DNA of 32,000 bases from Thermodesulfobacteriota bacterium. GTDB taxonomy: Bacteria; Desulfobacterota; WTBG01; JAGOGO01. Location of the stretch: the NCBI GenBank assembly GCA_026625185.1, contig CP113000.1, forward strand, positions 120,001 through 152,000. Direction: 5' to 3'. The translations under genes and the position numbers were made by a program. Shown one piece after another: positions 4,653-32,000 of this stretch (its first letter is position 1; the number at the start of each line of letters is the position of its first letter). The notes under the pieces were generated by a model. The model was not told where the DNA came from. It saw nothing but the letters and a program-made list of their open reading frames with translations, and did no database searches.

Positions 4653-4658
4653 AATAAA

Positions 4659-12289: not shown

Positions 12290-12967
12290 ATGGGAAAATA
12301 TCTTTTCAAAATCGAGGATCTCACCCATATATATGAGGACCGTACTATTCTCAATATTTTCTCCCTTGCCTTTGAAGAGAAAAAAATCCACGCCATCACC
12401 GGTCCCAATGGCTCAGGGAAAACAACCCTCTGTAATATCCTGGGCCTGCTTTTAAAACCTACCTTCGGTAAGATTTGGTATCAGGAGGAGATGTTTTATG
12501 AAAATGGAGGCCTTCCTGAGAGACTGCGAAAAAAAATTACCATGGTCCATCAAAACCCTTTTCTTTTCCATACCACGGTAGAAAAAAATGTGGCGTATGG
12601 TCTCAAAGTGCGTAACTACTCCCATTCTCAGCGGAACCAAAAAGTCGCATCATTCCTTAAGCTCATGGGAATAGAGCATCTTCGGCACCAGCAAGGAACC
12701 CGTCTTTCGGGCGGAGAGACTCAGCGAGTAGCAGTGGCAAGAGCTTTGGCAATTGATCCGGAAGTATTAATCTTGGACGAATTCACTGCCAATGTGGACC
12801 GAAACTACGTCAAGATCATAGAAGGAGTAATACAGGATGTTTTTCGGCAAAAAAATATCACTATTTTCTTAGTCACTCACGACGAAAACCAAGCCTCCCG
12901 GATCGCGCATACGGTTACTCATCTCATTGACGGTGAGGTAGTGGACCACTCGTCTCTATCCCATTAA
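12290..12967 (+). CDS. tupC: ABC transporter ATP-binding protein (TupC-like)
   Basis: Walker A GPNGSGKTT, signature LSGGETQRV, Walker B LILDEF. The 225-aa single-NBD size is typical of TupC. The tupC assignment rests on context with tupB/tupA. Confidence 0.7.
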   Translation: MGKYLFKIEDLTHIYEDRTILNIFSLAFEEKKIHAITGPNGSGKTTLCNILGLLLKPTFGKIWYQEEMFYENGGLPERLRKKITMVHQNPFLFHTTVEKNVAYGLKVRNYSHSQRNQKVASFLKLMGIEHLRHQQGTRLSGGETQRVAVARALAIDPEVLILDEFTANVDRNYVKIIEGVIQDVFRQKNITIFLVTHDENQASRIAHTVTHLIDGEVVDHSSLSH

Positions 12968-16451: not shown

Positions 16452-16514
16452 GTTCTCTCCCTTTTTCGACATTAGTTTTTTCTAAATTAAAATCTAAAAC
16501 CAATTGATTTCGGC

Positions 16515-16906: not shown

Positions 16907-17752
16907 TCAATTATTTTTTCCAACTGCTTCGGGGATAGCGGTGGGGATAAAAAGTGGTTGACCGAACTTATCTTTTCCAAACTCCCGGATTATCTTCTGG
17001 CCTTCGGTTGAGGTCAGCCAGCCAATGTAGGCCATAGCATAAACATATTTAACCTGAGGGAACTTGGCGGGATTAACCGCAATCACACCGTACGGGTTGT
17101 TTAAAACCGGGTCACCTTGGCAGAGAATTTTTAATCCGATTTTTCCTCCATAGGCCAAGTAAGTTCCCCGGTCTGATAAAGCATACGCCTGTTTCTCGTT
17201 CGCCATCGTCAAAACAGGTCCCATGCCTTGGCCGGCTTCCATATACCATTTCCCTTGGGGCTTGATTCCCGCCTTTTCCCAGATCTTTAATTCTTTTTTA
17301 TGAGTTCCCGAATCGTCTCCCCGGGATATAAAAGGCGCGTGGGCAAGTGCGATCTTCTTCAAGGCTTCCTTAGCATCAGTTGTACCTTTGATCTTGGCTG
17401 GATCCTTTTCCGGCCCAATGATAATAAAATCATTGTACATAACGAACCGCCGGTTAACACCCGAGCCATTCGCGACAAACTTATCTTCTGCCTCACGAGC
17501 GTGTACCAGAACCACATCAACATCTCCCCGTGCGCCCAGCTCCAAAGCCTTTCCGGTTCCCACGGAAATCACGTCTACCTTAATATTCATCATCTTTTCA
17601 AAGGGCGGATTAAGTGACTGAAGGATCCCGGTATCCTCAGTGCTGGTAGTGGTGGCTAATCGAAGCCGCAGTTCTTCAGCACGAATAATTCCTGTGGTAC
17701 TAATTACGAAAAGCACCAAAACCATAAAAACTAATCCCCATTTTTTTCCCAT
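16907..17752 (-). CDS. tupA: Tungstate ABC transporter substrate-binding protein TupA (canonical)
   Basis: Signal peptide, TupA signature LATTTSTEDTGIL, VLVHA, SRGDDSGTHKKELKIW. SD AAGGAGG. Confidence 0.85.
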   Translation of the reverse strand: MGKKWGLVFMVLVLFVISTTGIIRAEELRLRLATTTSTEDTGILQSLNPPFEKMMNIKVDVISVGTGKALELGARGDVDVVLVHAREAEDKFVANGSGVNRRFVMYNDFIIIGPEKDPAKIKGTTDAKEALKKIALAHAPFISRGDDSGTHKKELKIWEKAGIKPQGKWYMEAGQGMGPVLTMANEKQAYALSDRGTYLAYGGKIGLKILCQGDPVLNNPYGVIAVNPAKFPQVKYVYAMAYIGWLTSTEGQKIIREFGKDKFGQPLFIPTAIPEAVGKNN

Positions 17753-17853: not shown

Positions 17854-18684
17854 CTACTCCCCAAAACATTGGGAAGCTGAAAAGTACAAGGGCTCACCAA
17901 ACTCTTCCCTTCCAAAGGTAGCAATGATCTTTTGCCCTTGTGCACCCCTCAAAAATTCAACAAATTTTTTTGCCGGCTCATAGTTCGCTTGAGGATACAT
18001 TGTCGGGTTAGTTGTGAGTGCATGGTATCGATTGATAAGCATCGAGTCACCTTCGAAAAGGACCGCAAGGGTTAAGGCGTGGTTTTCCTTGCGCGCCACA
18101 ATATAGGTTGACCGATCCACCATAAAATAGCCGTTTTCATTCGCTGCCTTCTGAAGCGAAGCCATCATAAAATCTTTTGAGGTTCGATACCAGCTACCGG
18201 CGGGTTTTATTCCCGTTTTTTCCCAGATACCCAGTTCCTTTTTGTGAGTGCCGGAGTTATCTCCGCGGGTAATGAAGACTGCCTCTTTCTCAGCGATCTT
18301 CTTATAGGCACAGAGGACATCCTTACACTCCTTGATTGCCGCTGGATCTTCCTTGGGCCCCAGAACAACAAAATCATTGCCGCCAATATACGTCCGGTTA
18401 AGCGCCCAGCCTTCTTCTACGCCCTTTGCCTCTTCAGCCGGAGCATGCACCATAATGACATCAACCGTTCCGCTCTTAAGCATCTGTAACGACTCGCCTG
18501 AACCCGCCTTGGTCACGTTCAGTTCACAAGGAATCTCCTTTTTAAACTCGGCAAAAAGGGCATCCACCAACCCTAACTCATAGGGCGAACCAGTAGCCAA
18601 ACGTAAGGTGGTTGCCAAAAGAGAAGAAGGCACTACTAAAACCATCGGTAAAACAAAAAGTAAAAATATTCGGACCAATCTCAT
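17854..18684 (-). CDS. TupA-family periplasmic binding protein paralog lacking the TTTS motif
   Basis: Collinear with TupA1 (IMVHAP, TRGDNSGTHKKELGIWEK, GIKP.G.WY). The N-terminal anion-binding motif is LATGSPYELGLVDAL instead of ATTTSTEDTGIL. Signal peptide and SD GAGGAG present. Confidence 0.8.
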   Translation of the reverse strand: MRLVRIFLLFVLPMVLVVPSSLLATTLRLATGSPYELGLVDALFAEFKKEIPCELNVTKAGSGESLQMLKSGTVDVIMVHAPAEEAKGVEEGWALNRTYIGGNDFVVLGPKEDPAAIKECKDVLCAYKKIAEKEAVFITRGDNSGTHKKELGIWEKTGIKPAGSWYRTSKDFMMASLQKAANENGYFMVDRSTYIVARKENHALTLAVLFEGDSMLINRYHALTTNPTMYPQANYEPAKKFVEFLRGAQGQKIIATFGREEFGEPLYFSASQCFGE

Positions 18685-18727: not shown

Positions 18728-19459
18728 TTATTTAACGTATTTGTCTTTATACTCTTTCCAGGAAAAGTCGCTGACCGGTGTAACGGTGAAGACTTCCTTT
18801 TCCGGGGCCGTAAGAATCCGGACCGTCACGCACCGGGACATTGCCTCATACTGAGCATTGGCTTCCGGGTCGGTATCTTTTTTTGCTCTTAACTCTTGCA
18901 TCTCCTTGGGGAATTGAAATGTTGTGGTAAGTTTAATCGCTTTGCCGGTGCTCATGCCGGCAAAAATATAGCAGGAATCACCGATGGTTTTGTCAAACGC
19001 CAAATTGCCGTTAAACGCCCCTTCTGACCCTTTACCGTAGCGAGCGCCGGTCAGGTAACTGATCGCATCCGCAGGACACGCCCGCGGAGTGCCGCTCACC
19101 ACAAATTGATCACCCCGCAGAGGAATTTCTCCCGGATAGAGCTGTGCTAATGCAATCTGAGTAGCGCGGTAACCGAGCGCTATTCCCGGGCAGACGTGAC
19201 CATGAAATTTTTCCAGATCCCCAAAGGTAAGGGTGATATTTTTGATAGTGGCGCACTGAGGCTGCGCGCCTTCTTTGCCCTTATCAAATTTATGTTGTGG
19301 CTTTTCTTGCCCCGGTAGCTTCACGGTAATGGTGGGGATTCCTTCCCACGTGCCACCGCCACCCGCAAGTGCTTTTGTCACCCATGGCAGGACGCAGAAG
19401 GATAGTAAGGCGATAAAAGTAATGGTAATGCCCAAGCAAACTTTTCTGTAATGTTTCAT
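18728..19459 (-). CDS. Exported or membrane-anchored FmdE-domain protein
   Basis: FHGHVCPGIALGYR is the hallmark of the FmdE family (formylmethanofuran dehydrogenase subunit E-like). N-terminal hydrophobic signal/anchor MKHYRKVCLGITITFIALLSFCVLPWVTKALAGGGG. SD AAGGAGG. Confidence 0.75.
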   Translation of the reverse strand: MKHYRKVCLGITITFIALLSFCVLPWVTKALAGGGGTWEGIPTITVKLPGQEKPQHKFDKGKEGAQPQCATIKNITLTFGDLEKFHGHVCPGIALGYRATQIALAQLYPGEIPLRGDQFVVSGTPRACPADAISYLTGARYGKGSEGAFNGNLAFDKTIGDSCYIFAGMSTGKAIKLTTTFQFPKEMQELRAKKDTDPEANAQYEAMSRCVTVRILTAPEKEVFTVTPVSDFSWKEYKDKYVK

Positions 19460-19541: not shown

Positions 19542-20303
19542 TCACTCAAGTCGGTAGATTATCGGCACGCGCACTTCGGCCCTAACCGGCGGCTTGGGGA
19601 AGGGTGCTACTGCCTCTACCGTTTTAACCACATTATCATCCAGCACGTCAAACCCTGAACTCTTGGCGATCTTTATAGTGGTAGCGTTTCCATTTTCCAA
19701 AATTATGAACTCTATGATCACTTTCCCTTGCCAACCCATTCGCTGCGCCCTTGCTGGGTAGGTAATATTTTCTTGGATGATTTTTTTGATATAAGCAAAA
19801 TGCTCACTCAGATACTTTTTTCTAAGTGAATCGGCCGAAATCCCTCCCGTACCATTACCGGCCCCCCCCACCAAACCTCCCCCTCCTCCAAGGCCGGTGC
19901 CGCAAGCAGACTGGTCTCCGGTACCGGGAAGTGTTTCCGTCAGCGGTTGAGTCTTCGGAACCTCGGCTGAAGCTATCGGTACCGGACCTTGCTCCTCAAC
20001 GGGGGTTACAATTTTAGGCTCCGAACATTCATCTACCTTCTTTTCCAGTTGCCTAATCTTTTGCACTATTTTTGGGTTTTCTATTGGTTTTGGTTTATCC
20101 GGTTCCGGCATTTTGGGGGCGAGCAAAACTTTTTCATCTTTCGGAGGCCCGGGAGAATTAATGACCGATTCCAGAATGCTTAAATCAATAATCACCGGTT
20201 TAGTATTCATCAAGGCGCTGGTCGTTCCGATAACCCCGGCCAAAACAATAACCACGGTATGGATAATTAAAGAAACTAAAAACCCGCACGCCTGGCGCTT
20301 CAT
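19542..20303 (-). CDS. tonB: Energy transducer TonB
   Basis: N-terminal TM anchor, Pro/Lys-rich spacer (PKMPEPDKPKPIENPK), Gly-rich linker. C-terminal TonB domain: AQRMGWQGKVIIEFIILENG...SSGFDVLD...PFPKPP. Confidence 0.85.
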   Translation of the reverse strand: MKRQACGFLVSLIIHTVVIVLAGVIGTTSALMNTKPVIIDLSILESVINSPGPPKDEKVLLAPKMPEPDKPKPIENPKIVQKIRQLEKKVDECSEPKIVTPVEEQGPVPIASAEVPKTQPLTETLPGTGDQSACGTGLGGGGGLVGGAGNGTGGISADSLRKKYLSEHFAYIKKIIQENITYPARAQRMGWQGKVIIEFIILENGNATTIKIAKSSGFDVLDDNVVKTVEAVAPFPKPPVRAEVRVPIIYRLE

Positions 20304-20680
20304 CGCTTAATCTCGGTTTGAAGGCTTACCTTGGTAAATCCTAAAGTTTTTACTAAATCAAGCACATCCACAAATACCTGGAGCGCAATTTCCCGATCCG
20401 CCTTGATAAGAACAGGATTGTTTTTATCCAACTTCTGCATTGAGTCTTGGAGGCTTTCTATGGTCATGGGCCGGGAATTGAAATAGATCAGCCCGTTTTT
20501 ATCTATCTCAACGGTCTGAATCTTCAGGGTCATTTCCTGCTTATGCGCTGCCCGGGGAAGGTCTATTGGAATAACGCCTGTGGCAATAAAGGTGGAGGTG
20601 GTAAGCACAATCGTTAAAAGCACCAGCATCACATCAACCAACGGGATTACGTTGATATAATCAAATTCCTTTTCTTCCAT
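20300..20680 (-). CDS. exbD: Biopolymer transport protein ExbD/TolR
   Basis: 126 aa, [20 protein letters not shown] segment plus periplasmic domain. 4-nt overlap with tonB. Confidence 0.85.
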
Positions 20681-21095
20681 GCCTTATCTCCCATTTCATC
20701 ATGATCACCTTCACCCGCCTCAACAGCACGTTATAAAGAACCACCGACGGTATGGCCACCAGTAACCCCACAGCCGTCGCCTTTAAGGCCAGAGCCAGGC
20801 CAATCATGATTTTATTGGTATCCATAAAGCCTTCTTTGCCCATGGTGTAAAAGGTCAACATGATGCCCAGGACGGTTCCCAACAACCCGATATACGGAGC
20901 ATTGCTTCCCACGGTGGCGATAATATGAAGTTTCGCGGTGAGTTTAAGTTCCAGGGTCTTTAAATCAGAAAAATCTCTTACCTTGATGTGCCGGTACACC
21001 AGAAACCGCTCAATGGCGATACCCACCGATAACACACTCATAAAAACTAAAACTCCGATTATTCCGTAATCAACGATTGCTTTAAGCCAGTCCAT
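20661..21095 (-). CDS. exbB: MotA/TolQ/ExbB proton-channel protein (short form)
   Basis: 144 aa, three TM segments, [19 protein letters not shown] motif. 20-nt overlap with exbD. Confidence 0.85.
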
Positions 21096-21154: not shown

Positions 21155-22549
21155 TTATCTATCGTGACTCCTCTGCTTTAATTTTGCCAGGCGACTTATA
21201 ACAAGGTATATAATCCCACCCAGGGCAATGGTTCCTAAACCCCAACCGGATGTTAGTGGTTTATCCTTTAGAGAATAAAAGATGATCCAGAGGTTACCCA
21301 CAATAAATATGATCGGCGTCAATGGGTATCCCCAGGTCTTGTAAGTCGAGTGCCGACGATGATTTCGTCTCCTGAGGATAATCAGGCCGCAGACCGTGAG
21401 CACCGCAAAAAGGGATAAGGTGAATCCGATATAAATAAGAAGTTTATCAAATGAAGCAGTTACGGCCATGACAATAGCGAGGAACCCCTGCAAAACAATA
21501 GCATGAGCAGGAGTATGATGTTTTTTTCTGAGCTTTGCTAACGTCTTAATAAAAACTCCATCCCGCGCCATGGCGTAATATACTCTGGGACCTGCCAAAA
21601 TCATGGCGCTGGTTACCGAGAGCAGACCGATCGCGATTGCTCCAGCAACAAAATAGCTCGCCTTCTCACCAAAGAGCGTTACCGCGGCCTTTGCTCCTAC
21701 CTCTAATACCCCGCTCATCTCCGGCACGCTGAGCGCATAGAGGTAGGTTAGGTTTAAAAGGAAATAAAGAATCATTACCAAAAAAGTCCCGGTTAAAAGC
21801 GAAAACGGAATGTTGCGGGCCGAGTTTTTAATTTCGCTTCCCAAATAAGCAGCCGCATTCCAGCCGCTGTAAGCAAAAGAGATAAAAATAAGCGAGACGG
21901 CAAAGGAGCCCGAAAAAACCGAAGCGGTTTGCGAAGTATCGAACAGGCGCGGCATCGAGCCTTTTCCCAGAAAGAACCCTCCGGCCACAAAGCTCACAAT
22001 CAACAGAAGCTTGAAGGTAGTCAACACATTTTGCACCCGGCTTCCGAACCAAAGACTGTGGGCATGGATCAGGGAAAAAATAATGACGATCACTGAGGCA
22101 AGCATGGTGACGGGCGTGACAATCAGGATTGAACTGTTGCAAAGCGAGGCGTTCATGTCCATAGGCAAGAGGTTGGGGAACGCGCGAAAAAAATAGGTGG
22201 AAAAAGCGATAGTAGCCGCGGCAATGGGAGCGGAAAATCCAACGATCAATGATATCCAACCGGAAAGAAAGGCCGTCAATTTTCCGAAGCTTTCCCGCAG
22301 ATAGACGTATTCTCCTCCGGCGAGGGGAAACATTGCTCCCAGCTCTCCATAGCAGAGAGCGCCGGAAAGAGCGAAAATGCCGCCGATAATCCAGCACAAG
22401 AGCATGGCGCCGGGACTTCCGAGTTCTTGAATAATAAATCCCGAAGTCGTAAAAATCCCGGTGCCGATCATGTTGGCCACCACCAGAATCGTGGCCGAGA
22501 AAAAACCGATCTCGCGCTTTAACCCATTGCTGACATCGTTATGGTTCAT
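21155..22549 (-). CDS. APC-superfamily (amino acid/polyamine/organocation) permease
   Basis: 464 aa, ~12 TM segments, N-terminal FSATILVVANMIGTGIFTTSG motif typical of APC transporters. Substrate not inferable. Confidence 0.8.
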   Translation of the reverse strand: MNHNDVSNGLKREIGFFSATILVVANMIGTGIFTTSGFIIQELGSPGAMLLCWIIGGIFALSGALCYGELGAMFPLAGGEYVYLRESFGKLTAFLSGWISLIVGFSAPIAAATIAFSTYFFRAFPNLLPMDMNASLCNSSILIVTPVTMLASVIVIIFSLIHAHSLWFGSRVQNVLTTFKLLLIVSFVAGGFFLGKGSMPRLFDTSQTASVFSGSFAVSLIFISFAYSGWNAAAYLGSEIKNSARNIPFSLLTGTFLVMILYFLLNLTYLYALSVPEMSGVLEVGAKAAVTLFGEKASYFVAGAIAIGLLSVTSAMILAGPRVYYAMARDGVFIKTLAKLRKKHHTPAHAIVLQGFLAIVMAVTASFDKLLIYIGFTLSLFAVLTVCGLIILRRRNHRRHSTYKTWGYPLTPIIFIVGNLWIIFYSLKDKPLTSGWGLGTIALGGIIYLVISRLAKLKQRSHDR

Positions 22550-22564: not shown

Positions 22565-24325
22565 TTAATTAAAATGATATCCCTTAACGTCGTTTTCTAA
22601 ACAACCCCCAATATAGATCACGCCCATGGATTTTTCACTTTCTTTTTCCACCACTTTCGGAAGATCGCCCAAGGTGGTTCGCACGAGCGTTTCTTTTTCT
22701 TTACGGCCTGAATTATAAGCAATCGCCGCCGGCGTGGCCTCCGGATAATACTTCTGCAATGTGGGCATGAGGTTTGGCATCTCCCTCAACCCCATGAAAA
22801 TCGCCATTGTTTCACCCTTATCGGCAATCGCTTTAATTAACGCTTCGTTATTTTTAAAGCCATCCGGCGCGATAACCACGATGGTTCCTTTGCATGACAC
22901 ATCCCTTCCCGTAAGAGCATTGGAAGCGTTGAAAGCGCTCAAGCCCGGCACAATTTTCGTGTCCTCGTCTGGCAACGAAGCCTTCAACCATCGCCAGCAC
23001 GTGCCAAAGATAGTAGGATCGCCATAGTCCAAAAACGCCACGTTCTTCCCTTGCGCCAGAGCGTCCTTGACCGTCGTGAGCACCTTATCCCGCTCAGCCT
23101 TCAGTGATTTTTGGAGCTCGTCTTGAGAGAGCTCAGGATGGTTCTTTTTAAAGACCCACTCCATGTAATCTTTATGGTTAAACAGGATCGGCTTTTCTCC
23201 GATATAACGAGCAAATCTCGTCTTCATCTCATCCGGACAGATAAAAACATCAGCCCGGGCAAGGTAAAACAAGGTATCCATGGTGAGGAGGCTCGTGTCA
23301 CCACAGCCCATGCCCATGATGTAGAGTTTTGCATGAGGCTTAATGGTTATGGCCTCTATTTTCGACACGGCTTTTACCCAGCGGCCGGCAGAAAGGCCAT
23401 CCGGGGCGACAAATGCGAATTTGCCGGATTTTTCTAAAGGATGGTTATCGGCGGTATCGGCAATGATCAGGCGGCGCTCTCCCAGCAGATTGAAGAAAAG
23501 CTCTCCATAGGATATAAGGGAACGATATCCGTCCGGATCTGAGACCAAGAAGACCGTGTTTGGATCCGAAGCAACTCCTGCTTTTTCAATGAGTTTCCTT
23601 ACCGAGACCCCGCTAAACTTTTTTAGTTTTGGCGTTCCATTTCCTTCGCCCCTTTGCTTCACGTCCACGTCAATCCGGGGAAAATCAGATAAATTTTTGA
23701 GGGTAAAGGTATTCTTTACTGCTCCCGTGACTGTCACCTCCGAAGATGAGAGCGTTTCTGTCTTTTTAAAAATAAGTCCGGAAGCCACTTTAAGGACCTC
23801 AATCTGGCTTACTTCATTTAAGGAACGATCGGGAAAAATATCATTGGCAATAACCAGCTTGGGAAATCCCATCGGGGATTTGGCGCCTTCAGCGCCGGTA
23901 TCAACCTTGGGGTTCTTCGCGTGAATAGTTGATAGCGCAATCACCACGTCACCGGGATTATGGTCCAGCACTTCTCCCCACGAAAGGACCGTCTGGCTCC
24001 CCTTTTTATTCTTAACCACAATCGCTAAATCTATGGGTTTGAAAAAATTTGCATCTTCATCTTTCTGCACGCACGCCAGTTCAAGCAGGTTCTTCAAAGG
24101 CACACCCCGGAAATACACGTCACCCTCGGAATGTCCTTCGCTGTTGGCGACTTCATTATACCGCACGAAAAGTGACTGCATGTTTTCAAGGTCCTGTAAG
24201 GTTACAAAGAGAGGTTGTTGCACCATGCCGGTAACGGACAAAACCGGCAGGACGCCTGCCCATCCTTTTACACCGACAAGCAAGAGAAACGCCAGTGAGA
24301 AAAGCACCATTATTTTTTTTCGCAT
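22565..24325 (-). CDS. Secreted fusion protein A: signal peptide + two YedY/sulfite-oxidase-like beta domains + C-terminal CbiF/CobM-like tetrapyrrole-methylase fold
   Basis: Signal peptide MRKKIMVLFSLAFLLLVGVKGWAG. Domains at about aa 27-180 and 196-328 carry VTG.V..P...L.DL / GV.L..L...AG / DGY.S..SYGEL / vKavskIE patterns. Aa 333-576 are collinear with precorrin methylases (YIMGMGCGD, LDYGDPTIFG, VPGLSAFNASNALTG, ETMAIFMGL, TPAAIAYN...TLVRTTLGDL, GVIYIGG). Confidence 0.8.
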   Translation of the reverse strand: MRKKIMVLFSLAFLLLVGVKGWAGVLPVLSVTGMVQQPLFVTLQDLENMQSLFVRYNEVANSEGHSEGDVYFRGVPLKNLLELACVQKDEDANFFKPIDLAIVVKNKKGSQTVLSWGEVLDHNPGDVVIALSTIHAKNPKVDTGAEGAKSPMGFPKLVIANDIFPDRSLNEVSQIEVLKVASGLIFKKTETLSSSEVTVTGAVKNTFTLKNLSDFPRIDVDVKQRGEGNGTPKLKKFSGVSVRKLIEKAGVASDPNTVFLVSDPDGYRSLISYGELFFNLLGERRLIIADTADNHPLEKSGKFAFVAPDGLSAGRWVKAVSKIEAITIKPHAKLYIMGMGCGDTSLLTMDTLFYLARADVFICPDEMKTRFARYIGEKPILFNHKDYMEWVFKKNHPELSQDELQKSLKAERDKVLTTVKDALAQGKNVAFLDYGDPTIFGTCWRWLKASLPDEDTKIVPGLSAFNASNALTGRDVSCKGTIVVIAPDGFKNNEALIKAIADKGETMAIFMGLREMPNLMPTLQKYYPEATPAAIAYNSGRKEKETLVRTTLGDLPKVVEKESEKSMGVIYIGGCLENDVKGYHFN

Positions 24326-24330: not shown

Positions 24331-25086
24331 TTAGTCCTTTTTATTATTTGTGTTAAGTTGAAAGAAATACCAAAGCATCAAGACCGACATGAACGCTCCG
24401 CCCAATAAAATCAATCGGGTGCCCGGGTCCTTTTTCATGATGATTCGCAAGGGAAGTTGCTCCTTGCTTTTCTGGTCAACATCTAAATGCAAACTCCAGC
24501 CTTGAAACCAACACGGGTGCAAAAAGCTGATCTCTTTTGGATAGGTCTGAGAATCGGTCTTGAGATCTAAGGCGACCGCGCACTGGCGAAGTGGATTCTT
24601 TAAAAGGGAATTTTTCCAGAAAGTCGGTCGCACCTCTTTTACTTCCATGGTTCCGAGTTCAACCGAAATAATATCGCCGGCTTTAATCGGAATCACCTTC
24701 TGGGCGCCGGTAAACACGCTCAAGGCGTGGCCGGATAATGCCATGAGGAAAAAAATATGCATGAGCGAAGGAGAAAGCTTTAAGAAAAATTGACCAAAAC
24801 CAGACCCCCGTCTTTTGGGCCACAGGCCGGCCAGCCGGTCCAGGGTGCAGGCGCCGGTGTTAATGCCTAAGAAGATGAGAAGGAAAAAGAACGAGAAAAT
24901 CCACCAGCTTTTTCCGTCACCAAAAACTTTGAACCATTCCTGAAAGAGCATTTGGTTCAAAGGACGAAAGATGCCGGGACAATACTTTATATAATAAGCC
25001 CCGATGGTTAGATTAAGCGCAATGAGAAATAAAAGATAAAGGCTCAGTTTTACACTGGCTAAAAACCGCCACAGCGCTTTAACCAT
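24331..25086 (-). CDS. Short ResB/CcsB-like membrane protein
   Basis: N-terminus LWRFLASVKLSLYLLFLIALNLTIG and GINTGACTLDRL resemble the ResB N-terminal region. Four TM segments with a ~100-aa periplasmic loop. 8-nt overlap with the upstream CcsA-like gene; SD GGAGGG. Much shorter (251 aa) than typical ResB. Confidence 0.6.
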   Translation of the reverse strand: MVKALWRFLASVKLSLYLLFLIALNLTIGAYYIKYCPGIFRPLNQMLFQEWFKVFGDGKSWWIFSFFFLLIFLGINTGACTLDRLAGLWPKRRGSGFGQFFLKLSPSLMHIFFLMALSGHALSVFTGAQKVIPIKAGDIISVELGTMEVKEVRPTFWKNSLLKNPLRQCAVALDLKTDSQTYPKEISFLHPCWFQGWSLHLDVDQKSKEQLPLRIIMKKDPGTRLILLGGAFMSVLMLWYFFQLNTNNKKD

Positions 25087-25840
25087 TTTTCCCTCCGATC
25101 ATCATTACCAGCTCCGATAATTGGTATTGAAAGGTAAACACGAGAACCAACACCATCCCGGCAATCGCCACCCCGGCTTTTTTTCGCAAATCCCATTTGG
25201 CGACAAAGCTCAAGTGGATGTAGGCGACATAGTAGCACCAGATCGCCGCTGATCCCAAATGCCGATCCGCCCAGTGAAAGGGACTTCCCCAGCCCAGATA
25301 AGCCCAGATGGCACCAAAAACCTGAGAGAGGCTAAAAAGCACGAACCCCCAGATTACAAGATCATGAAAAATCGGAACCTCGATTTTTTTACGGACATAA
25401 AAAAACGCAAGCCAGGCCCCCATAATAAAACAGGCATGAGCCAGCACTTCACAAGCAAAAAACAGGGGGGAGAAGAAAGTCTGATTTTTGGCAAACGGAG
25501 GAATGACTCCTTTCGGGTACACCAGGGTGATGATAGAAAAAAAGAAAATGGGCATGATAATATGGGAAAATAATTTTAGGTCATTTTTAAAGAACCGCAC
25601 TATCAAGCCGATAAAGCCAAGTGACCAGGGAAGAAAGGAGATTTCATTAAACATGGGGTTTGCAAAAAAAAAGCCCAGGTACCAGCCGCGGGTTATTTGA
25701 CTCACCGTATGAAAGACAAACCCGAAAACAAAAAACACCTCGGCCACCCGTTCCTTTTTTAGAAGACCAGAAAAAACACTAACGAGATACCCGCCAAAAG
25801 CAAGATAAAAGGTGATTAAAGAAAGCTCAGCAATTGACAT
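25079..25840 (-). CDS. CcsA/CcmC-family (cytochrome c assembly / heme-handling) membrane protein with a divergent Trp-rich motif
   Basis: GAIWAYLGWGSPFHWADRHLGSAAIWCYYVAYIHL aligns with the CcsA consensus WA...WG.YW.WDPKE....W..Y...LH, but WSWDPKE is replaced by FHWADRH. 8 TM segments. SD AGGGAGG. Confidence 0.7.
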   Translation of the reverse strand: MSIAELSLITFYLAFGGYLVSVFSGLLKKERVAEVFFVFGFVFHTVSQITRGWYLGFFFANPMFNEISFLPWSLGFIGLIVRFFKNDLKLFSHIIMPIFFFSIITLVYPKGVIPPFAKNQTFFSPLFFACEVLAHACFIMGAWLAFFYVRKKIEVPIFHDLVIWGFVLFSLSQVFGAIWAYLGWGSPFHWADRHLGSAAIWCYYVAYIHLSFVAKWDLRKKAGVAIAGMVLVLVFTFQYQLSELVMMIGGKNG

Positions 25841-26117: not shown

Positions 26118-27872
26118 TTAATTAAGGCAGGGGCCGACATAAATCAGTCCCAACCATTTTTCGCTTTCTTTTTCATTTGCTTTTAATACCTCCTGGAGCG
26201 TAGACCTGACTATCTTTTCCTTTTCCGTGTAACCGGCATTATAAACCAGACTTATCGGCGTGGTGCCGGCATAGTATTTCTGCAAAAACGGCACCAGGGT
26301 GGGCAATTCCTTCAGACCCATAAAAATAACCAGCGTTTCACCCTGGTCGGCAATCGCCTTAACCAACGGCTCGTTGCTTTTTAATCCCCGGGGCGCTGTA
26401 ATTACCAGGGATCCGTTGCAGGTCGGATCTCGTTTAAGAAGCGCATTGGAAACGTTAAAAGCGCTGATGCCGGGAACAATCTCGATTTGATCTTCGCTAA
26501 TATAGTCTTTTAAAAAGCGGCCGCTTCCAAAAACTCCGGGATCGCCATACTCCAGATAAGCAACGGTCTTCCCTTCGTTCAAAGCGGCAATAACTTTTTG
26601 AACTTCCTTCGCACGCTGTTCTTTGAGAAGTTTTTCCTTTTCCTCTTGCGTGAGGTTTGGGTTGGGCTTGTGAATAATCTGTTCCAATGAATGGATCGGA
26701 TTAAAGAGCACCGGCTTGTCCCCGATATAACCGGCAAGGCTGTTTTTCAGCTCATCGGAACACACAAAAGCATCCGCCTTGGATAGACAGGAAAGCGCTT
26801 CGAGAGTAATCAGTTTTGTTTCCGAACACCCGATACTGATGATGTAAACCCTGGGCTCTTTTTTCAGAGTGATTACCTCTATCTTATCAACTGACTTCAC
26901 AGTCCGGTCCGCTGAAAGATCATTGGGCAGAACGAGCATGAACTTTCCGGTTTTTTTCAAGGGCTGATTATCCACGGTATCCGCGAGCATAATCTCTGCG
27001 CCCGCGCGCGAAAGGAAGAGCTCACCGTAGGATACCAGCGACCGGTATCCATCAGGAGCAGAAGCGATAATAACGGAATTTAAATCCGGCTTGATTCCGG
27101 CTTTCTCGAGGAGAACGCTCAGCGAAACCCCCTTATACTTATTAAATCCGTGAAAACCTTTGCCTTCGCCGACCTGTTTGGCAAATAACGCGGTCTGAGG
27201 ATAGGAAGAGATTTTTTTAAGTTCTGATGACTTTCCTTTGCCTGAGATAACCGTTACTTTTGGCGAAAAAATACTTTCTCCCTTTTTTCCCTGAATCGGC
27301 AGGTGGAGGTCCACCACCTCAATGTTGGTAATCTCCTCAATACACCGGTCGGTGTAAAAATCATTAGCCACCACCAAGGTGGGAAGGCCAACGTTTCGTT
27401 TTAACTGATCAACCATGTTCGGAGCGATTTCCTGAGCAAAAGCCGGATCACCTAACTTTTTAGGCATGATCGGAGTAGCTTCAATGCCGACGATGATATC
27501 CCCCGGGTTCCGGTAGAATACCTCGCCCCAGGAAAGCACCACCTGCTCGCCTTTCTTGTTTCGAACCACTATCGCCAGGTCAACCAGCTTGGAAAATGCC
27601 GACGCCTCTTTTCTGACTCCCGCAAGATCAAGCAGGGCTTGGAGTGAAGGCCCGTGAAAATAAAACACTCCGTGAAAACTTTTGTCTTTGGACACCTCAT
27701 TGAGCCGCACACAAGCGCTGTCAAACTTTTTAAGGTCTTCCATATTCATATACAGCGGCTGTTTCACCTCGCCCGTGATGCTGATCACGGATTGCGCATC
27801 CGCCCATGCCTGAACAGTGAAAAAGCAGCCTACGGCAATCAAAAAAACAATGGAAATTATTTTTTTAAACAT
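26118..27872 (-). CDS. Secreted fusion protein B (paralog of 22565-24325)
   Basis: Same architecture as protein A and collinear with it throughout. Signal peptide MFKKIISIVFLIAVGCFFTVQAWADA. Methylase-like domain with YIISIGCSE, LEYGDPGVFG, VPGISAFNVSNALL, ETLVIFMGL, GLIYVGP. Start placed at the ATG (27872) after the TTG listed in the ORF track; SD AAGGGA. Confidence 0.8.
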   Translation of the reverse strand: MFKKIISIVFLIAVGCFFTVQAWADAQSVISITGEVKQPLYMNMEDLKKFDSACVRLNEVSKDKSFHGVFYFHGPSLQALLDLAGVRKEASAFSKLVDLAIVVRNKKGEQVVLSWGEVFYRNPGDIIVGIEATPIMPKKLGDPAFAQEIAPNMVDQLKRNVGLPTLVVANDFYTDRCIEEITNIEVVDLHLPIQGKKGESIFSPKVTVISGKGKSSELKKISSYPQTALFAKQVGEGKGFHGFNKYKGVSLSVLLEKAGIKPDLNSVIIASAPDGYRSLVSYGELFLSRAGAEIMLADTVDNQPLKKTGKFMLVLPNDLSADRTVKSVDKIEVITLKKEPRVYIISIGCSETKLITLEALSCLSKADAFVCSDELKNSLAGYIGDKPVLFNPIHSLEQIIHKPNPNLTQEEKEKLLKEQRAKEVQKVIAALNEGKTVAYLEYGDPGVFGSGRFLKDYISEDQIEIVPGISAFNVSNALLKRDPTCNGSLVITAPRGLKSNEPLVKAIADQGETLVIFMGLKELPTLVPFLQKYYAGTTPISLVYNAGYTEKEKIVRSTLQEVLKANEKESEKWLGLIYVGPCLN

Positions 27873-27965
27873 CAAGTTTTCCCTTTCTTCTATCCCTTAC
27901 CATTATCCCCTTTACCTCTCTTTTTGGAAAAGAGGGGGGGCTGGGGGATCTTAAATCTCTATACC

Positions 27966-28017: not shown

Positions 28018-30135
28018 TTAGTATTTCGCCGTCAACCCGAACCAGACGGTTCTTCCCATTGCCGGGAAACCATACTCAGGCTCGTAGTCCCGGTCGAGCA
28101 TGTTGTTCATCGCCATGTAAGCTTCAAAATACTTCAGGAAGTTCTGCGAAATCCGGCAGTCAAACGTCATCTGCGAGTCGCTTTTGATCGTAGGATCTTT
28201 CGGATACGTTGGCGTAGGGAGCCGGGAGTAGACTTGGGCCACATAAATAGCGTTAAAATCAAGCCGGGTTCCTATTCTCGGCACAGTATACCGAAGCCCA
28301 ACATCAAATTTATGGAGCGGAGTATTGAGAACCTTATCCGTTACCCGGCCTTCGCTGTGATCTTTGGCTCGATTGTACATGTAATCAAAGCTTAGCACCA
28401 GGTTCTTTACCCAGGGCGGATAAAATTCGGTATTGAGTTCAAAACCAGCCATTCTAATTTTCCCGAAATTCAAATAGTTCCCACCTTGATCCGGAGGAAG
28501 GTCGCGGGTAATCCAGTCTGATATGCGGTGATAAAAATAGGCAAGCTCTAACCAGGCGAGATTACCAAAAGCATGATTTACCCCAAAGGTAGTGTTGACG
28601 CTTTGCTCTGTTTTTAAATCGGGATTCCCCCCCGAGGTCGAATAGAGTTCCTGCAAGGTAGGAAAGCGGGTTTTTTTAGCAACTGAGGTAAAAAGCTTGG
28701 TATCTTTATCAATCTGATAGGTAAGGCCCCCCATGGGATTGAAGGAATGGGAAATTGGCGCTGTTTTGTTATCCCTTTGGGCTTGCAAATCCCCGTATTC
28801 AACTCCAGGCGGCAACACTGGATCATCTTTTGAGTTCCAAGTATCATTATAATTTGACCCTTTAATATCGAACCAGTCGTAGCTCACCCCGGCAACCAGG
28901 GCAAGGTTTTTAATGAGGGCAAACTCATTTTCCAAGCCTAAAGAACCGGTGTAGGTATAGGATTTCGAGAAGGGCAGGTATTCATCATTTTTTTCTTTAT
29001 GGATGTCCCTGGTTAAATGATAGGAAAACCGAAGGATGTCCCAGGAAACCGGCTGGTAATCCGCAAAGAATTTTCCTCCCCAGCTTTCATCATTGTACAA
29101 GCTGTCAGCAATGTTATTTTTAAAGTCATACCAGTCATAGGATTCATATATATCGTCGTGTTTGTGATAAAAAAGTTTGCCCCGTAAGGTCAATTGATCG
29201 AAAACTTTTTGCTTCCCGCTTAAATCAAGAGCCCAGTCATCATATTTTGGCCAGCGATTAAACGGAGTGAACGCCGGTCGTGTAAGGAACATCCGTGAAG
29301 CTTCCCGTATGCTGGGAGGCACCCCCTTTTCACGGTCAATGTAATAAAAATTTGCGTAATATTCGGAATCAGGGTTAAATTCGACACCAACTTTGGCCCA
29401 GATCGCGTGTTTTTGGGAGTCCGAATTATTGCGGTATCCACCATTTTCCATTTCATAAGTACCAGTTTTTCCTTTAATTGTCCCTTGAACCGGCTTAAAA
29501 TCATCCGAGAGCCGCCATCCTAATGTCTCCTCATGGGTGTAGTTTAACCAGTAGCTGAAAATCCCTTTTTTCCACCCGGTAGAAAAGGATTCCCTATCAC
29601 TACCGTGTTCCCCCATCTCAAAGGTGGCTGAAGCTGCCATTTTTGTAGTGGCTTTTTTGGTAACGATGTTGATAACCCCGCCCATGGCGCCCGCGCCATA
29701 AATGACCGAAGGTGCCCCCTTGGTAATTATGATTTTGGCGATGTTGTCCGTCGGTATGGAGGAAAGGTCGAGTTTATGGTAATTCTGCTCGTAATAGGGA
29801 ACACCGTCAATGAGCACCAGGAGGCGTTCCTGACCAAAACCCTGGATCGAAATGTAGGGTTCGTTTTTCTTGCCGGTGGAAACCCGCACTCCCGGAGCAT
29901 GGGCCAGAGCTTCAGCCACATTTGTGCTGTGAGTGGCTTTAATCTGCTCTGCCGTTACTTCGTTAGTGATAGCCATTTCGGTAACAGCCGCCGGCTTTTC
30001 ACCGGATACAACTATTTCACCCAGGTCATAGGCGGTAAAATCAGCTTCTTCGTCTTTTTCTGCCGACCATGCCGGGAGGGAAAAAGCAAACAACAAACTA
30101 AAACTAATTAATAATAATAAAACTTTTACCCTCAT
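28018..30135 (-). CDS. TonB-dependent outer-membrane receptor (TBDR2)
   Basis: Signal peptide MRVKVLLLLISFSLLFAFSLPAWSA, TonB box DLGEIVVSG, plug motifs (VAEALAHAPGVRV, LVLIDGVPY, GGVINIVTKKA). 705-aa barrel ending ...FGLTAKY. SD AAGGAGG. Confidence 0.9.
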   Translation of the reverse strand: MRVKVLLLLISFSLLFAFSLPAWSAEKDEEADFTAYDLGEIVVSGEKPAAVTEMAITNEVTAEQIKATHSTNVAEALAHAPGVRVSTGKKNEPYISIQGFGQERLLVLIDGVPYYEQNYHKLDLSSIPTDNIAKIIITKGAPSVIYGAGAMGGVINIVTKKATTKMAASATFEMGEHGSDRESFSTGWKKGIFSYWLNYTHEETLGWRLSDDFKPVQGTIKGKTGTYEMENGGYRNNSDSQKHAIWAKVGVEFNPDSEYYANFYYIDREKGVPPSIREASRMFLTRPAFTPFNRWPKYDDWALDLSGKQKVFDQLTLRGKLFYHKHDDIYESYDWYDFKNNIADSLYNDESWGGKFFADYQPVSWDILRFSYHLTRDIHKEKNDEYLPFSKSYTYTGSLGLENEFALIKNLALVAGVSYDWFDIKGSNYNDTWNSKDDPVLPPGVEYGDLQAQRDNKTAPISHSFNPMGGLTYQIDKDTKLFTSVAKKTRFPTLQELYSTSGGNPDLKTEQSVNTTFGVNHAFGNLAWLELAYFYHRISDWITRDLPPDQGGNYLNFGKIRMAGFELNTEFYPPWVKNLVLSFDYMYNRAKDHSEGRVTDKVLNTPLHKFDVGLRYTVPRIGTRLDFNAIYVAQVYSRLPTPTYPKDPTIKSDSQMTFDCRISQNFLKYFEAYMAMNNMLDRDYEPEYGFPAMGRTVWFGLTAKY

Positions 30136-30163: not shown

Positions 30164-30268
30164 CTATCTCAGTTCTAATTCCGAGAGTCCCAGAGCCACT
30201 TGATTTTTGAGTAAATCTATTCGACTGATTATCTTATCAGCGAGTTTAAGAAGTTCCATATCATTCAT
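30164..30268 (-). CDS. Candidate 34-aa small ORF (MNDMELLKLADKIISRIDLLKNQVALGLSELELR)
   Basis: Hand-translated; below the ORF-track size cutoff. ATG preceded by AAGGAGG with a 7-nt spacer. Fills the gap between the 109-aa ORF and TBDR2. Predicted amphipathic helix. Confidence 0.4.
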   Translation of the reverse strand: MNDMELLKLADKIISRIDLLKNQVALGLSELELR

Positions 30269-30272
30269 ACTC

Positions 30273-30602
30273 TTACCTCCTTTCACACTTTAGAAGTTCA
30301 TCCATCTTTAAAGTCCTCTCCACATACTTCCCTCCATCAGAATTTCTCTTATATAACAACAAGTTCAACTTTCCATGTAAGAAAACAAACATACTACAGG
30401 CTATATGTCCCATAGTACTTAATCCTGTAGGAAGTATATAATCATCTGGAGAGGAATCCTTTAGTTTCTCAGCGAACAGTCTATAAATCTGAGTTGTTCC
30501 ATAACGGGATATTACTCCCTCCGAGAGATATACAAGTTCTCCAAATCTCTCAGCATCTTCGTTATCGTGTCCTCCACGGTTGACAATAAAAACCTTTTTC
30601 AT
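30273..30602 (-). CDS. Hypothetical 109-aa protein, first gene of the TBDR2 array
   Basis: ORF with SD AAAGGA. Visibly more A+T-rich than its neighbours. No family recognised. Confidence 0.55.
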   Translation of the reverse strand: MKKVFIVNRGGHDNEDAERFGELVYLSEGVISRYGTTQIYRLFAEKLKDSSPDDYILPTGLSTMGHIACSMFVFLHGKLNLLLYKRNSDGGKYVERTLKMDELLKCERR

Positions 30603-30712: not shown

Positions 30713-30745
30713 AGCTATAATATAGCTAAAATATAGCCTTGTCAA
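30713..30745 (-). promoter_or_regulatory. Candidate sigma70 promoter of the long minus-strand array, with a palindromic operator over the -10
   Basis: Minus-strand TTGACA (30745-30740), 17-nt spacer, TATTAT (30722-30717). A perfect 7-1-7 palindrome AGCTATA-A-TATAGCT (30713-30727) covers the -10. Confidence 0.45.
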
Positions 30746-31130: not shown

Positions 31131-32000
31131 CTAAAGTTCCGCCATTACCTTGCCGGTATCTTTGGTATCGTATCCGCCCATTTTGTTTATGCTTTGTTTA
31201 AACTCCGGAGACCGGATTACCTCAACCAGGGAAACTATGGGCTGCGCAGATAAATTTTCTCTGGGAATAACGAAATCATATTGTTCGTTTGTCAGGTGAA
31301 TAAAGGTTAGATTTAACATCTTGGCAGCTGACAAAATGCCTAAGCCCACATCTACTGCCCCGCTGGCAACTGCCATAGCCACTTCAAAATGAGTGTTGAC
31401 TTCTTTTTCATACCCATCAAGCCGCATTGGCTCAATGCCAACTTTCTTACATTCATAATCAAAAAGCACTCTGGTGCCGGATCCTTCTTGCCGGTTAATG
31501 ATTTTGATTGCCGTCCGGGACAAGTCCTTAATGGACAAAATGTTTAAAGGATTTTCCGGCTTTACCATTAAACCAATATCACGATAGGCTAAATTGATGA
31601 CCGTGGTTCTAATCCCCGGGAGATAACGGGAGATGTACGGGACATTGTATTGGCCGGTGTCAGGATCAAAAAGATGGCAGCCGGCTATGTGGCTGTTCCC
31701 CCTGCCCAAGGCAATAAGTCCGGCCAAACTTCCGACGTTCGAAAAAGAAAGACTATATTCAGAAAACCGTCTGCTTAATTCATGCGAGAGCAATTCTACC
31801 GTAAAATCATTGCTTCCCATGATCACGATATGATCTTTCAGCTCTCTCGGTTTGTTTTTGAGGCCGATATTTTCCTTAGCGCTTTCGACGATCCACCCTT
31901 CAACTAATCGCCTCGGAAAAGTCCACTTGCCCGTAACCTTGGTCCCCGGTATTTTCTTTTCCTTTAAAAGTTTATAAACCAGCTTTTCATTTATATTGAG
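31131..32000 (-). CDS. Transcriptional regulator: excisionase/MerR-type HTH + periplasmic-binding-protein-like (molybdate/tungstate-binding-type) sensor domain; 5' end beyond the window
   Basis: The frame stays open from 31826 up to base 32000 with no stop (hand-translated: LNINEKLVYKLLKEKKIPGTKVTGKWTFPRRLVEGWI..., an HTH). The downstream 230 aa resemble the PBP-like domain found fused to HTH in putative oxyanion-responsive regulators (IMGSNDF..., NRQEGSGTR). Confidence 0.7.
   Translation of the reverse strand, partial: LNINEKLVYKLLKEKKIPGTKVTGKWTFPRRLVEGWIVESAKENIGLKNKPRELKDHIVIMGSNDFTVELLSHELSRRFSEYSLSFSNVGSLAGLIALGRGNSHIAGCHLFDPDTGQYNVPYISRYLPGIRTTVINLAYRDIGLMVKPENPLNILSIKDLSRTAIKIINRQEGSGTRVLFDYECKKVGIEPMRLDGYEKEVNTHFEVAMAVASGAVDVGLGILSAAKMLNLTFIHLTNEQYDFVIPRENLSAQPIVSLVEVIRSPEFKQSINKMGGYDTKDTGKVMAEL

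Follow-up and report, generated by a model that had tools for sequence, protein, structure and literature searches.

A divergent ResB/CcsA-type pair of membrane proteins in a TonB-dependent tungsten/molybdenum acquisition operon

Our analysis concerns two adjacent genes in a 32,000-nucleotide stretch of the genome of a Thermodesulfobacteriota bacterium (GenBank assembly GCA_026625185.1, contig CP113000.1, positions 120,001 to 152,000), which we call the window. The genes encode a CcsA-like membrane protein of 253 amino acids and a ResB-like partner of 251, and we find that this pair is a divergent ResB/CcsA module of the System II haem-handling type, homologous to CcsA and ResB, and that it is a conserved component of an operon for the TonB-dependent acquisition of tungsten (W) and molybdenum (Mo). 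Moreover, the pair is retained under selection despite the loss of the haem site of its periplasmic partner. To judge from its sequence, it does not serve cytochrome c maturation in the usual sense. The original prediction, which was made from the letters of the window, had proposed a repurposed translocator or chaperone that moves a tetrapyrrole-like ligand to or from the two periplasmic proteins between whose genes the pair lies.

To our knowledge, haem-handling proteins such as CcsA, CcmC, CcmF and ResB are known almost only from cytochrome c maturation, and no TonB-dependent W/Mo system in which processing takes place in the periplasm has been characterised. The pair studied here belongs to a compact branch of these proteins that has lost the canonical periplasmic ligands, appears to have rebuilt the site and, together with a sister branch, is a standard part of TonB-dependent uptake operons; its own operon lies in the W/Mo cofactor regulon, in anaerobes that represent no fewer than five phyla. 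The supply of W and Mo in sulfidic, metal-poor habitats is poorly understood, and our results define a testable gene set, namely the receptor, monohaem and CbiF-like proteins with a sulfite-oxidase fold (SO-fold), the pair itself, a permease of the amino-acid/polyamine (APC) family and the Tup genes, which is present in at least one cultured host, Pelobacter (Syntrophotalea) carbinolicus. It also provides a natural experiment on which residues turn a haem-handling protein into a lyase.

The CcsA-like and ResB-like proteins

The CcsA-like protein matches the Pfam family PF01578 (Cytochrom_C_asm) over residues 65-241 at 41.5 bits, above the gathering score (29.9 bits; E 1.6e-10), and in the source annotation the CcsA-like genes appear as 'cytochrome c biogenesis protein CcsA'. 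Against the CcsB equivalog of NCBIfam (TIGR03144), it reaches only 48.2 bits, with a cut-off of 187.6. We used MAFFT to align members of the CcsA-like family with intermediate sequences and 21 canonical CcsA sequences, and we scored residue conservation in both proteins of the pair over about 80 loci. In the alignment H209, which lies within YIHL, stands opposite the canonical YLH histidine in the helix that follows the Trp loop; together with the Pfam match, this bears out the CcsA/CcmC layout, downstream histidine included, that the original prediction had recognised. The Trp loop itself consists of W179 followed by WGSPFHWADRH (residues 184-194), which is the homologue of canonical WGxYWSWDPKE with W replaced by F188, D by A191 and E by H194. 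The protein retains W179, W184 and W190 and departs from the WWD core pattern WGx[FYW]WxWDxxE, WSWD having become FxWA, and the WxWD core is gone in every member of the family. W179, W184, W190, H194 and H209 are invariant (80/80 loci), while H189, the histidine of 'FHW', may be H, R, Q, S or N. Thus the rewritten motif singled out in the original prediction is real as regards the lost core, and its FHWADRH variant is conserved at W190 and H194, but the supposedly inserted histidine is not a conserved feature.

The periplasmic haem ligands have been altered as well. The canonical P-His1 (the histidine of ALQSxWLxxHV, or LHV) aligns to F127, a position occupied by F in 73 and by Y in 5 of the 80 loci and never by H, and for canonical P-His2 (the histidine of the C-terminal GLHSY) the alignment with the 21 canonical sequences gives no counterpart in the family. 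We take the labels P-His1, P-His2 and TM-His2 to apply here as they are used for CcsBA. In CcsBA, CcmC and CcmF the P-His pair and the WxWD core hold haem for ligation. H135 had been considered as a haem ligand and counterpart of P-His1, and was dropped, as it lies 8 residues past the P-His1 position and is conserved in 58 of the 80 loci only.

The partner, whose gene overlaps the CcsA-like gene by 8 nt, is more divergent in sequence. The window protein itself has no significant match in Pfam or NCBIfam (for ResB, PF05140, E 2.3 and 7.3 bits against a cut-off of 24.6), and 10 of 11 members of its family match PF05140 weakly, the best at E 2.5e-6; such a weak match is also on record for the orthologue at locus L004. 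Its AlphaFold2 (AF2) model (predicted local distance difference test, pLDDT, 86.3) finds in a Foldseek search of the PDB only CcsBA 7S9Y, CcmF 6ZMQ and CcsBA 7S9Z at E<=0.001, and the top match is 7S9Y (E 1.4e-6, query-normalised TM-score 0.61). Since ten of the eleven members match ResB and the fold matches CcsBA and CcmF, the description of the protein as a miniature ResB in the original prediction was correct. Its periplasmic part is reduced to a small beta domain at residues 128-219, to be compared with the 486 positions of the Pfam ResB model. When the CcsA-like and ResB-like alignments were run as sequence profiles against the PDB, nothing relevant came up, so that only the fold search gave matches.

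In the ResB-like protein W51, W62, N76 and C80 are invariant (79/79), and no sequence aligned at the position lacks H110 (77/77) or H120 (76/76). Taken together, the four histidines of the pair (H110, H120, H194 and H209) occur in every sequence aligned at these positions, which means in 76-80 of about 80 loci. Judging by hydropathy and by the helices in AF2, H110 and H209 lie toward the cytoplasmic side and H120 and H194 toward the periplasmic side. The spacing is 10 residues between H110 and H120 of the ResB-like protein and 15 between H194 and H209 of the CcsA-like protein, a pattern over two helices that is reminiscent of NarI and other di-haem carriers.

A profile search with the CcsA-like family alignment over 1.84 billion representatives gave 49 clusters at E<=1e-30, 259 at E<=1e-10 and 1699 at E<=1e-3, and the matches form a continuum of small CcsA-like subfamilies, one of which we discuss below as a sister of the window-type family.

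The flanking proteins and a lost haem site

As the original prediction had noticed, the pair is encoded between two secreted paralogues with a methylase fold. They have 585 and 586 amino acids, are 46% identical to each other and each have an N-terminal signal-like helix. The layout of the 585-aa protein is a signal-like helix, two SO-fold (Oxidored_molyb-like) domains and a methylase-fold domain of CbiF type. With its AF2 model (pLDDT 82.8) the top Foldseek matches are the CbiF/CobM structures 4E16, 3NDC and 2CBF (E ~1e-14), and on the strength of this model the C-terminal half is a bona fide class III methyltransferase fold nearest to CbiF/CobM. The GDP and PG(I/V)SA motifs are conserved in this half and the customary GxGPGD reads G(C)GD or GCSE. 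Since in homologues the same chain bears a haem c site, with no transmembrane (TM) helix in between, the methylase half must be periplasmic there; S-adenosylmethionine (SAM) is not expected in the periplasm. The SO-fold domains read GEGKGFHG at the loop that holds the Mo-ligand cysteine in enzymes of the sulfite-oxidase family, no cysteine is invariant in the SO-fold half, and the N-termini of the SO-fold proteins are of Sec or lipoprotein type, lacking the twin arginine of Tat signals. The SO-fold half alone has no sequence match in the PDB, and the Foldseek result for the whole 585-aa model is dominated by the methylase half, which leaves the SO-fold half without a structural neighbour.

The original prediction had stressed that no cytochrome c client is encoded near the pair. 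Indeed, a scan of all six frames of the 32-kb window finds no CXXCH; as we estimate from typical Cys and His frequencies that about 0.1 such motifs would be expected by chance, this absence says only that there is no cytochrome c gene in the window. The homologues tell more. The 585-aa protein has more than 600 of them, and among the best 120 a single CXXCH is found in 108, at about residue 140, in a loop between the two SO-fold domains with the consensus PIMPH[RK]xCxxCHxPE[VF]Y. The 12 that lack it are the nearest relatives of the window protein and P0243; their loop reads PIMPKKLGDPAFAQEI or similar, and the window protein has KKLGDPAFAQ at this position. Judged from these homologues, the state without a client is a derived, lineage-specific loss of the haem site. 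The original prediction was therefore right that the window holds no client, but the partner family normally carries one CXXCH, which has been lost here. It had also named orthologues beside multihaem cytochromes with unusual attachment motifs as what would speak for a dedicated lyase of conventional kind; a good part of this is borne out, in that orthologues adjoin cytochromes at about 30 loci, which suggests a dedicated haem-handling pair, although the motif is an ordinary single CXXCH.

The periplasmic partners differ by lineage in their candidate redox cofactor. CXXCH occurs in 32 SO-fold open reading frames (ORFs) adjoining the pair in the ~30 related loci just mentioned, and in the Desulfuromonadales the first paralogue has it and the second does not. 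In 29 stand-alone SO-fold ORFs of spirochaete type CXXCH is absent and an N-terminal TGAT motif is found. Some loci have SO-fold proteins with neither motif, among them those of the window. As to the spirochaete-type motif, it takes the form (M)A(V/I)TGATP right behind the signal or lipobox (L001 7649-8725, L003 8926-9984 and 27 other stand-alone SO-fold ORFs) and resembles the ApbE flavinylation site [ST]GA[ST], lacking the usual flanking residues, so that we regard it as a hint only. Among the called genes of L001, L003 and L004 we noted no ApbE gene, and the flavinylation survey names neither molybdopterin-fold nor CcsA/ResB proteins.

The pair has not followed the haem site into loss. Between the window and L005, which both belong to the clade without CXXCH, the dN/dS of the CcsA-like gene is 0.16, that is, purifying selection. 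More widely, the pair is kept where no CXXCH client is near: in the window clade, in 12 loci with TGAT as the only motif, in the operons of Geobacteraceae, and in 27 of the 47 loci with full flanks (see below), a few of them frameshifted assemblies, where no ORF of 100 aa or more within 8 kb contains CXXCH.

The operon and its relatives

In the window the pair lies amid one long string of minus-strand genes that runs from a TonB-dependent receptor (TBDR) to two TupA-like genes (Table 1). A regulator upstream of this string combines a helix-turn-helix (HTH) with a PBP_like domain and matches the C-terminal region of NCBIfam PRK14498 with 244.8 bits in addition to its HTH match; its oxyanion-sensor domain is of the type found fused to MoeA. 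The receptor reaches no NCBIfam equivalog, and its PDB matches cover the plug domain only. A TupB-like permease and an ABC ATPase are encoded apart from the operon and probably form the importer for oxyanions at the inner membrane. Among the annotated ORFs of the window, none has a DsbD or thioredoxin-type domain.

We scanned one genome per species and obtained 80 further loci; there are 82 non-duplicate loci, 47 of which have full flanks of at least 4 kb on both sides of the pair; neighbours within 8 kb of the pair were then counted with hidden Markov models built from the window and the first loci. The loci come from Thermodesulfobacteriota, Desulfuromonadales/Geobacteraceae, Thermodesulfovibrionales, Spirochaetota/Leptospirales and Acidobacteriota/Aminicenantes, from at least five phyla, and single bins labelled Pedobacter, Bacteroidetes and Myxococcota have the locus as well. 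The ResB-like gene is adjacent to the CcsA-like gene in 80 of the 82 loci. A TBDR stands by the pair in 65 (43 of the 47 full loci), an SO-fold gene likewise in 65, a methylase-fold domain in 29, ExbB, ExbD and TonB in 27-28, an APC permease in 21 (the minimal operons of Geobacteraceae included), a TupA-like gene in 16 and an FmdE-family gene in 4, namely in the window, in L005 and L019, which are closely related to it, and in L007, where the gene lies between the receptor and the methylase-fold gene. These counts are slightly affected by broken-up module genes in loci L005, L019, L043, L054 and L060 from metagenome-assembled genomes (MAGs); the fragmentation into short ORFs is probably due to indel errors of long reads and does not indicate pseudogenes.

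The linkage is thus not the one that the original prediction had expected. A methylase fold as obligatory partner has to be rejected, being absent from many loci, so that the methylase half is optional, and the pair is linked to the receptor instead and, less strictly, to the N-terminal double SO-fold half. That the pair is functionally tied to the periplasmic proteins at its flanks was well seen; the context of TBDR, ExbBD-TonB, Tup proteins, regulator and riboswitch had been missed.

The same core is found in distant homologues (37-44% identity) from a spirochaete, a second spirochaete MAG and an Aminicenantes MAG. There (L001, L003 and L004) it consists of the receptor, a periplasmic protein of ~340 aa that is homologous to the N-terminal half of the 585-aa proteins, the CcsA-like protein and the ResB-like protein, accompanied by TOBE proteins, regulators and ModABC/Tup-like transporters; an HTH_17+PBP_like regulator adjoins the module in L001 and L003. 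On a Thermodesulfovibrionales chromosome (L013) the order is TBDR, CcsA-like, ResB-like, SO-fold with CXXCH, TonB, TupA, TupA, permease and ATPase. The minimal operons of Geobacteraceae have the pair without any SO-fold gene, as in L040, where TBDR, CcsA-like, ResB-like, APC permease, ExbB, ExbD and TonB are bounded by unrelated genes on both sides. The APC permease belongs to the module in L005, L010-L012, L016, L021-L023, L035, L040-L046, L051, L064 and L076; in the Geobacteraceae operon it is the sole other inner-membrane protein, and its substrate might be the cargo itself or a co-substrate, for example SAM or methionine.

In 10 loci, which span Spirochaetota, Acidobacteriota/Aminicenantes and Desulfuromonadales, the receptor gene is directly preceded by a Moco/Wco riboswitch (RF01055); five were found straight from Rfam and five through a model built from those and then confirmed by Rfam. 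The window has no RF01055 match at the gathering score or at E<=1, and has the PBP_like regulator in its place. Because of the riboswitch in these loci and the regulator in the window, the module belongs to the Mo/W cofactor regulon, and the Tup, regulator and riboswitch context as a whole places it in tungsten/molybdenum acquisition. In the literature we found no published TBDR under the control of a Moco riboswitch. The predicted promoter upstream of the receptor, TTGACA-17-TATTAT, overlaps a perfect palindrome, GCTATA-N12-TATAGC, a possible operator reminiscent of the ModE type, which is unique in the window and of which 0/100 shuffles reach one match; we give it low weight because it was not found in any other locus.

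A sister subfamily in other uptake operons

We sampled the sister subfamily in 86 loci (L085-L170; for example L085 890-13033). Its CcsA-like proteins, too, have ~250 aa, lack the canonical P-His2 and are followed directly downstream by a ResB-like gene, in operons of TonB type; the Trp-loop motif is LGWGxPVVWxD, and the sole histidine near P-His1 is two residues off that position. The order of the genes is very uniform, CcsA-like, ResB-like, BtuF-like, FecCD, ABC and CobN-like, often with a receptor, ExbBD/TonB or CbiZ as well, and no multihaem ORF occurs in these loci. Since the ResB-like helix reads PHxMH...GY, as against PSLxH...GH in the window-type family, the outer site would be built differently. 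A CobN-like protein, HmuS, is a reductant-dependent periplasmic haem dechelatase (PMC12583661). From their gene content the sister operons look like systems for the salvage of haem or corrinoids with dechelation, not for Mo/W. Given the synteny of both subfamilies, we regard small ResB/CcsA pairs without the canonical periplasmic His set as a general accessory of TonB-type uptake and not of cytochrome loci. For three loci of intermediate subfamilies the contigs were too short for informative context.

Comparison with known systems

A cluster of this kind has been annotated before. Aklujkar et al. (2012; PMC3543383) describe Pcar_0191-Pcar_0195 of P. carbinolicus, where Pcar_0195 is a TonB-dependent channel, Pcar_0194 ResC/HemX-like and Pcar_0193 ResB-like, and Pcar_0192 and Pcar_0191 are 'molybdopterin-binding tetrapyrrole methyltransferases' with one haem-binding site in the former and none in the latter; the organism has a second ResB/ResC pair, Pcar_2228/2229 (PMC3543383). 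By annotation this is the same module, and its gene order matches that of the related Syntrophotalea locus L025, the difference being that Pcar_0192 has one haem site and both window paralogues have none. The paper keeps to the level of annotation, speculates on 'novel porphyrins', and gives no motif analysis, no link to a Mo/W regulon and no experiments for the cluster. It is all that we found in the literature on a TonB-dependent W/Mo system with these genes, functional studies included; nor did we find the sequence peculiarities, the regulon membership or the breadth of the family described, and in these our analysis goes beyond the 2012 annotation.

With the System II synthases CcsBA and ResB-ResC (CcsBA of Helicobacter hepaticus, 7S9Y/7S9Z) the pair shares superfamily, fold and the cooperation of two membrane proteins, as well as a Trp-rich periplasmic loop, the conserved histidine after it (YLH/YIH) and a conserved histidine in a ResB TM helix. 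It differs in its size, each protein having ~250 aa and the periplasmic ResB domain ~95 aa, in the replacement of P-His1 by Phe and the absence of P-His2, in the change of WSWDPKE to FxWxxxH with Glu turned into an invariant His, in the additional conserved H120 of the ResB-like helix, and in its place in a TonB-dependent Mo/W operon and not with CcdA/ResA and cytochromes. Dedicated isoforms such as Wolinella NrfI/CcsA1 and Geobacter ResB/ResC keep the WWD core and both P-His residues and serve unusual motifs or multihaem proteins. Like our pair, they are extra pairs beside the periplasmic protein that they presumably serve, the four ResB/ResC pairs of Geobacter each adjoining cytochrome genes (PMC2700814); unlike them, our pair has a rebuilt ligand set, an ordinary single CXXCH or none at its side, and a TonB-dependent receptor as its constant neighbour.

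A functional analogy may also be drawn with MsrQ-MsrP (YedZ-YedY), where a membrane protein with TM His pairs works with a periplasmic SO-fold protein, and with FoxB and FpvG, which have TM His pairs and serve the redox release of metal complexes imported by a TBDR. The membrane parts of these systems are not homologous to the pair, and the SO-fold domains of the window differ from MsrP in that GEG stands where the Mo-ligand Cys would be and the signals are of Sec type and not Tat.

Discussion

What could a haem-handling pair do in an operon for the uptake of W and Mo? The cytochrome that normally accompanies the pair no longer has a haem site in this genome, and the task of the pair should therefore lie outside classic cytochrome maturation. 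We tentatively favour a membrane module that holds haem and, by redox chemistry or by supplying haem, serves the periplasmic processing of imported W or Mo. The pair would receive haem from the cytoplasm at an inner site made of H110 and H209, the counterparts of TM-His1 and TM-His2, and would hold a second haem at the rebuilt outer site, H120 and H194, under the remnant of the Trp loop; together the two haems could form a transmembrane electron path. This path would feed the redox processing of W or Mo species brought in by the receptor, either directly or by way of the SO-fold proteins, which carry haem c in most lineages and a TGAT motif in spirochaetes, and the oxyanion would then be passed to TupA and the Tup ABC importer. 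In such a scheme the pair would work like FoxB/FpvG or MsrQ and not like a haem lyase. No other reading accounts for every type of locus unless further assumptions are made, which is why we favour a redox module.

A number of observations weigh against it. We identified no cytoplasmic or quinol donor site, and in the window the proposed acceptor is undefined because its own SO-fold proteins lack both CXXCH and TGAT. H135, once thought ligand-like, is kept in only 58 of the 80 loci, and we take H110 to be the counterpart of TM-His1 from topology and from what is known of CcsBA, not from a residue-level structural alignment. A haem translocator would need the same four-His, two-site logic, so that this logic does not discriminate between electron transfer and haem delivery, and in most fused-type relatives the pair adjoins a CXXCH protein, as a dedicated haem-delivery pair classically does.

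A close rival, to our mind only slightly less likely, is a dedicated haem exporter or chaperone, thioether-forming or not, that supplies the SO-fold monohaem cytochrome of the module; in the window lineage the covalent site would have been lost, with loading now non-covalent or the client encoded elsewhere. The CXXCH in 108 of the 120 best homologues and in the 32 adjoining SO-fold ORFs speaks for it, as do the invariant inner-site histidines and the three invariant loop tryptophans, the Geobacter pairs beside their cytochrome genes (PMC2700814), and P. carbinolicus, where Pcar_0192 with its one haem site lies beside Pcar_0193/0194 and a separate canonical pair, Pcar_2228/2229, exists. Yet both P-His residues and the WxWD core are gone even in members beside CXXCH partners, an ordinary CXXCH could be served by the general system, purifying selection holds in clades and locus types without a nearby CXXCH or SO-fold gene, and nowhere does the sister subfamily adjoin cytochromes. 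If the idea of the original prediction is extended, the pair could also be an inner-membrane translocator by which a modified or non-haem ligand enters or leaves the cytoplasm, for instance a tetrapyrrole-like metallophore, as the CbiF-like domains might suggest, or a pterin cofactor, as the SO-fold domains might. In several types of locus a TBDR and a periplasmic protein are all that accompanies the pair, and no further transporter of the inner membrane is encoded within 10 kb; the GDP and PG(I/V)SA motifs and the CbiF/CobM fold are preserved in the CbiF-like domains; the sister subfamily sits in tetrapyrrole-type uptake operons; and riboswitch-controlled transporters commonly move the cognate cofactor or its precursors. 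A tetrapyrrole-like cargo is thus possible, but the conserved inner-site histidines point to haem itself, and because other importers are usually present (Tup/Mod-type ABC importers or the APC permease in many loci, BtuF-FecCD-ABC always in the sister loci) we consider a role in moving the cargo unlikely. Of the repurposing once proposed, what stands is that the pair does not look like an ordinary maturation system (F127 for P-His1, no P-His2, no WxWD) and that it is tied to its flanking proteins; the client, however, has been lost and was not missing from the outset.

In a broader version of such transport, which we think quite improbable, the whole module would be devoted to TonB-dependent salvage or processing of an organic cofactor bearing Mo or W, or of a tetrapyrrole-like metallophore, with the pair as the inner-membrane translocator or handler of this ligand. 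The riboswitch-controlled receptor, the periplasmic molybdopterin-fold domains without ligand Cys and the periplasmic CbiF-like domains would all be in keeping with it. If it were true, haem-handling proteins would have been repurposed for a non-haem cofactor, and small pairs without the canonical periplasmic His set would be a general, unrecognised class of TonB-uptake accessories. Very improbable indeed is a general System II cytochrome c synthase that lies here by chance, or a decaying remnant of one. The PF01578 match and the source annotation as CcsA would suit a general synthase, but the score lies far below the CcsB cut-off, P-His1 and P-His2 are missing, the synteny with the TBDR operon is strict across phyla, no thiol-redox partner or cytochrome gene is found among the annotated ORFs of the window, and P. 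carbinolicus has a separate canonical pair; against decay stand the dN/dS of 0.16 and the invariant residues.

Other features of the window and the loci

Table 1. Features of the operon in the window and riboswitches upstream of the receptor in related loci (positions in the window, or in the locus named).
Feature	Position	Strand	Remarks
HTH + PBP_like (PF12727) regulator	31131..31997	(-)	N-terminal HTH; PF12727 232.6 bits; upstream of operon
Sigma-70-like promoter TTGACA-17-TATTAT	30714..30745	(-)	11/12 matches; best of the intergenic region upstream of the receptor
TonB-dependent receptor (TBDR)	28018..30135	(-)	Plug and beta-barrel Pfam domains; first large operon gene
First SO-fold/methylase protein	26118..27875	(-)	585 aa, periplasmic; PF00174 Oxidored_molyb and PF00590 TP_methylase
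CcsA-like gene	25079..25840	(-)	253 aa; divergent CcsA/ResC-type haem-handling membrane protein
Miniature ResB/CcsB-type gene	24331..25086	(-)	251 aa; four TM helices, beta domain ~95 aa
Second SO-fold/methylase paralogue	22565..24325	(-)	586 aa, 46% identical to the first; without CXXCH
APC permease	21155..22549	(-)	PF13520 195.6 bits
ExbB	20661-21095	(-)	Pfam
ExbD	20300-20680	(-)	Pfam
TonB	19542-20303	(-)	Pfam; ExbB-ExbD-TonB is the energy transducer of the receptor
FmdE-family protein	18728..19459	(-)	PF02663 84.9 bits; hydrophobic N-terminus, 7 Cys; between tonB and tupA-like genes
TupA-like binding protein	17854-18684	(-)	NCBIfam TupA 156.7 bits (equivalog cut-off 400 bits)
TupA-like binding protein	16907-17752	(-)	NCBIfam TupA 224.7 bits (equivalog cut-off 400 bits)
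ABC ATPase	12290-12967	(+)	TupC/WtpC-like matches, below equivalog cut-offs
TupB-like permease	9774-10466	(+)	NCBIfam TupB 214.9 bits, below equivalog cut-off
RF01055, L001	4854-4976		
RF01055, L004	7888-8010		
RF01055, L022	7718-7837		
RF01055, L024	2734-2853		
RF01055, L025	2063-2182		
RF01055, L063	5945-6064		
RF01055, L070	3027-3149		
RF01055, L071	6286-6409		
RF01055, L077	7877-7996		
RF01055, L081	7725-7845		

The region that separates the receptor gene from the promoter (30165-30602) holds two small ORFs, one of 109 aa at 30273-30602 with a Pfam match to Pam3_gp32-like (37 bits), and after it one of ~34 aa. Just past the TupA-like genes, at 15105-16472, is an outer-membrane barrel of AlgE type ('Alginate export'), possibly an anion porin for oxyanion uptake. 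The TupB-like permease and the ATPase are split by a gene of the amino-acid-kinase family (10641-11498) and a PadR regulator (11830-12216), which is an unusual interruption of tup genes. The window also holds a second, unrelated uptake locus at 4119-9513, with another TonB-dependent receptor (7486-9513), a duplicated ABC ATPase (6082-7458), a CbiQ-like gene (5409-6287) and a small membrane protein of cobalt-transport type (4119-4652).

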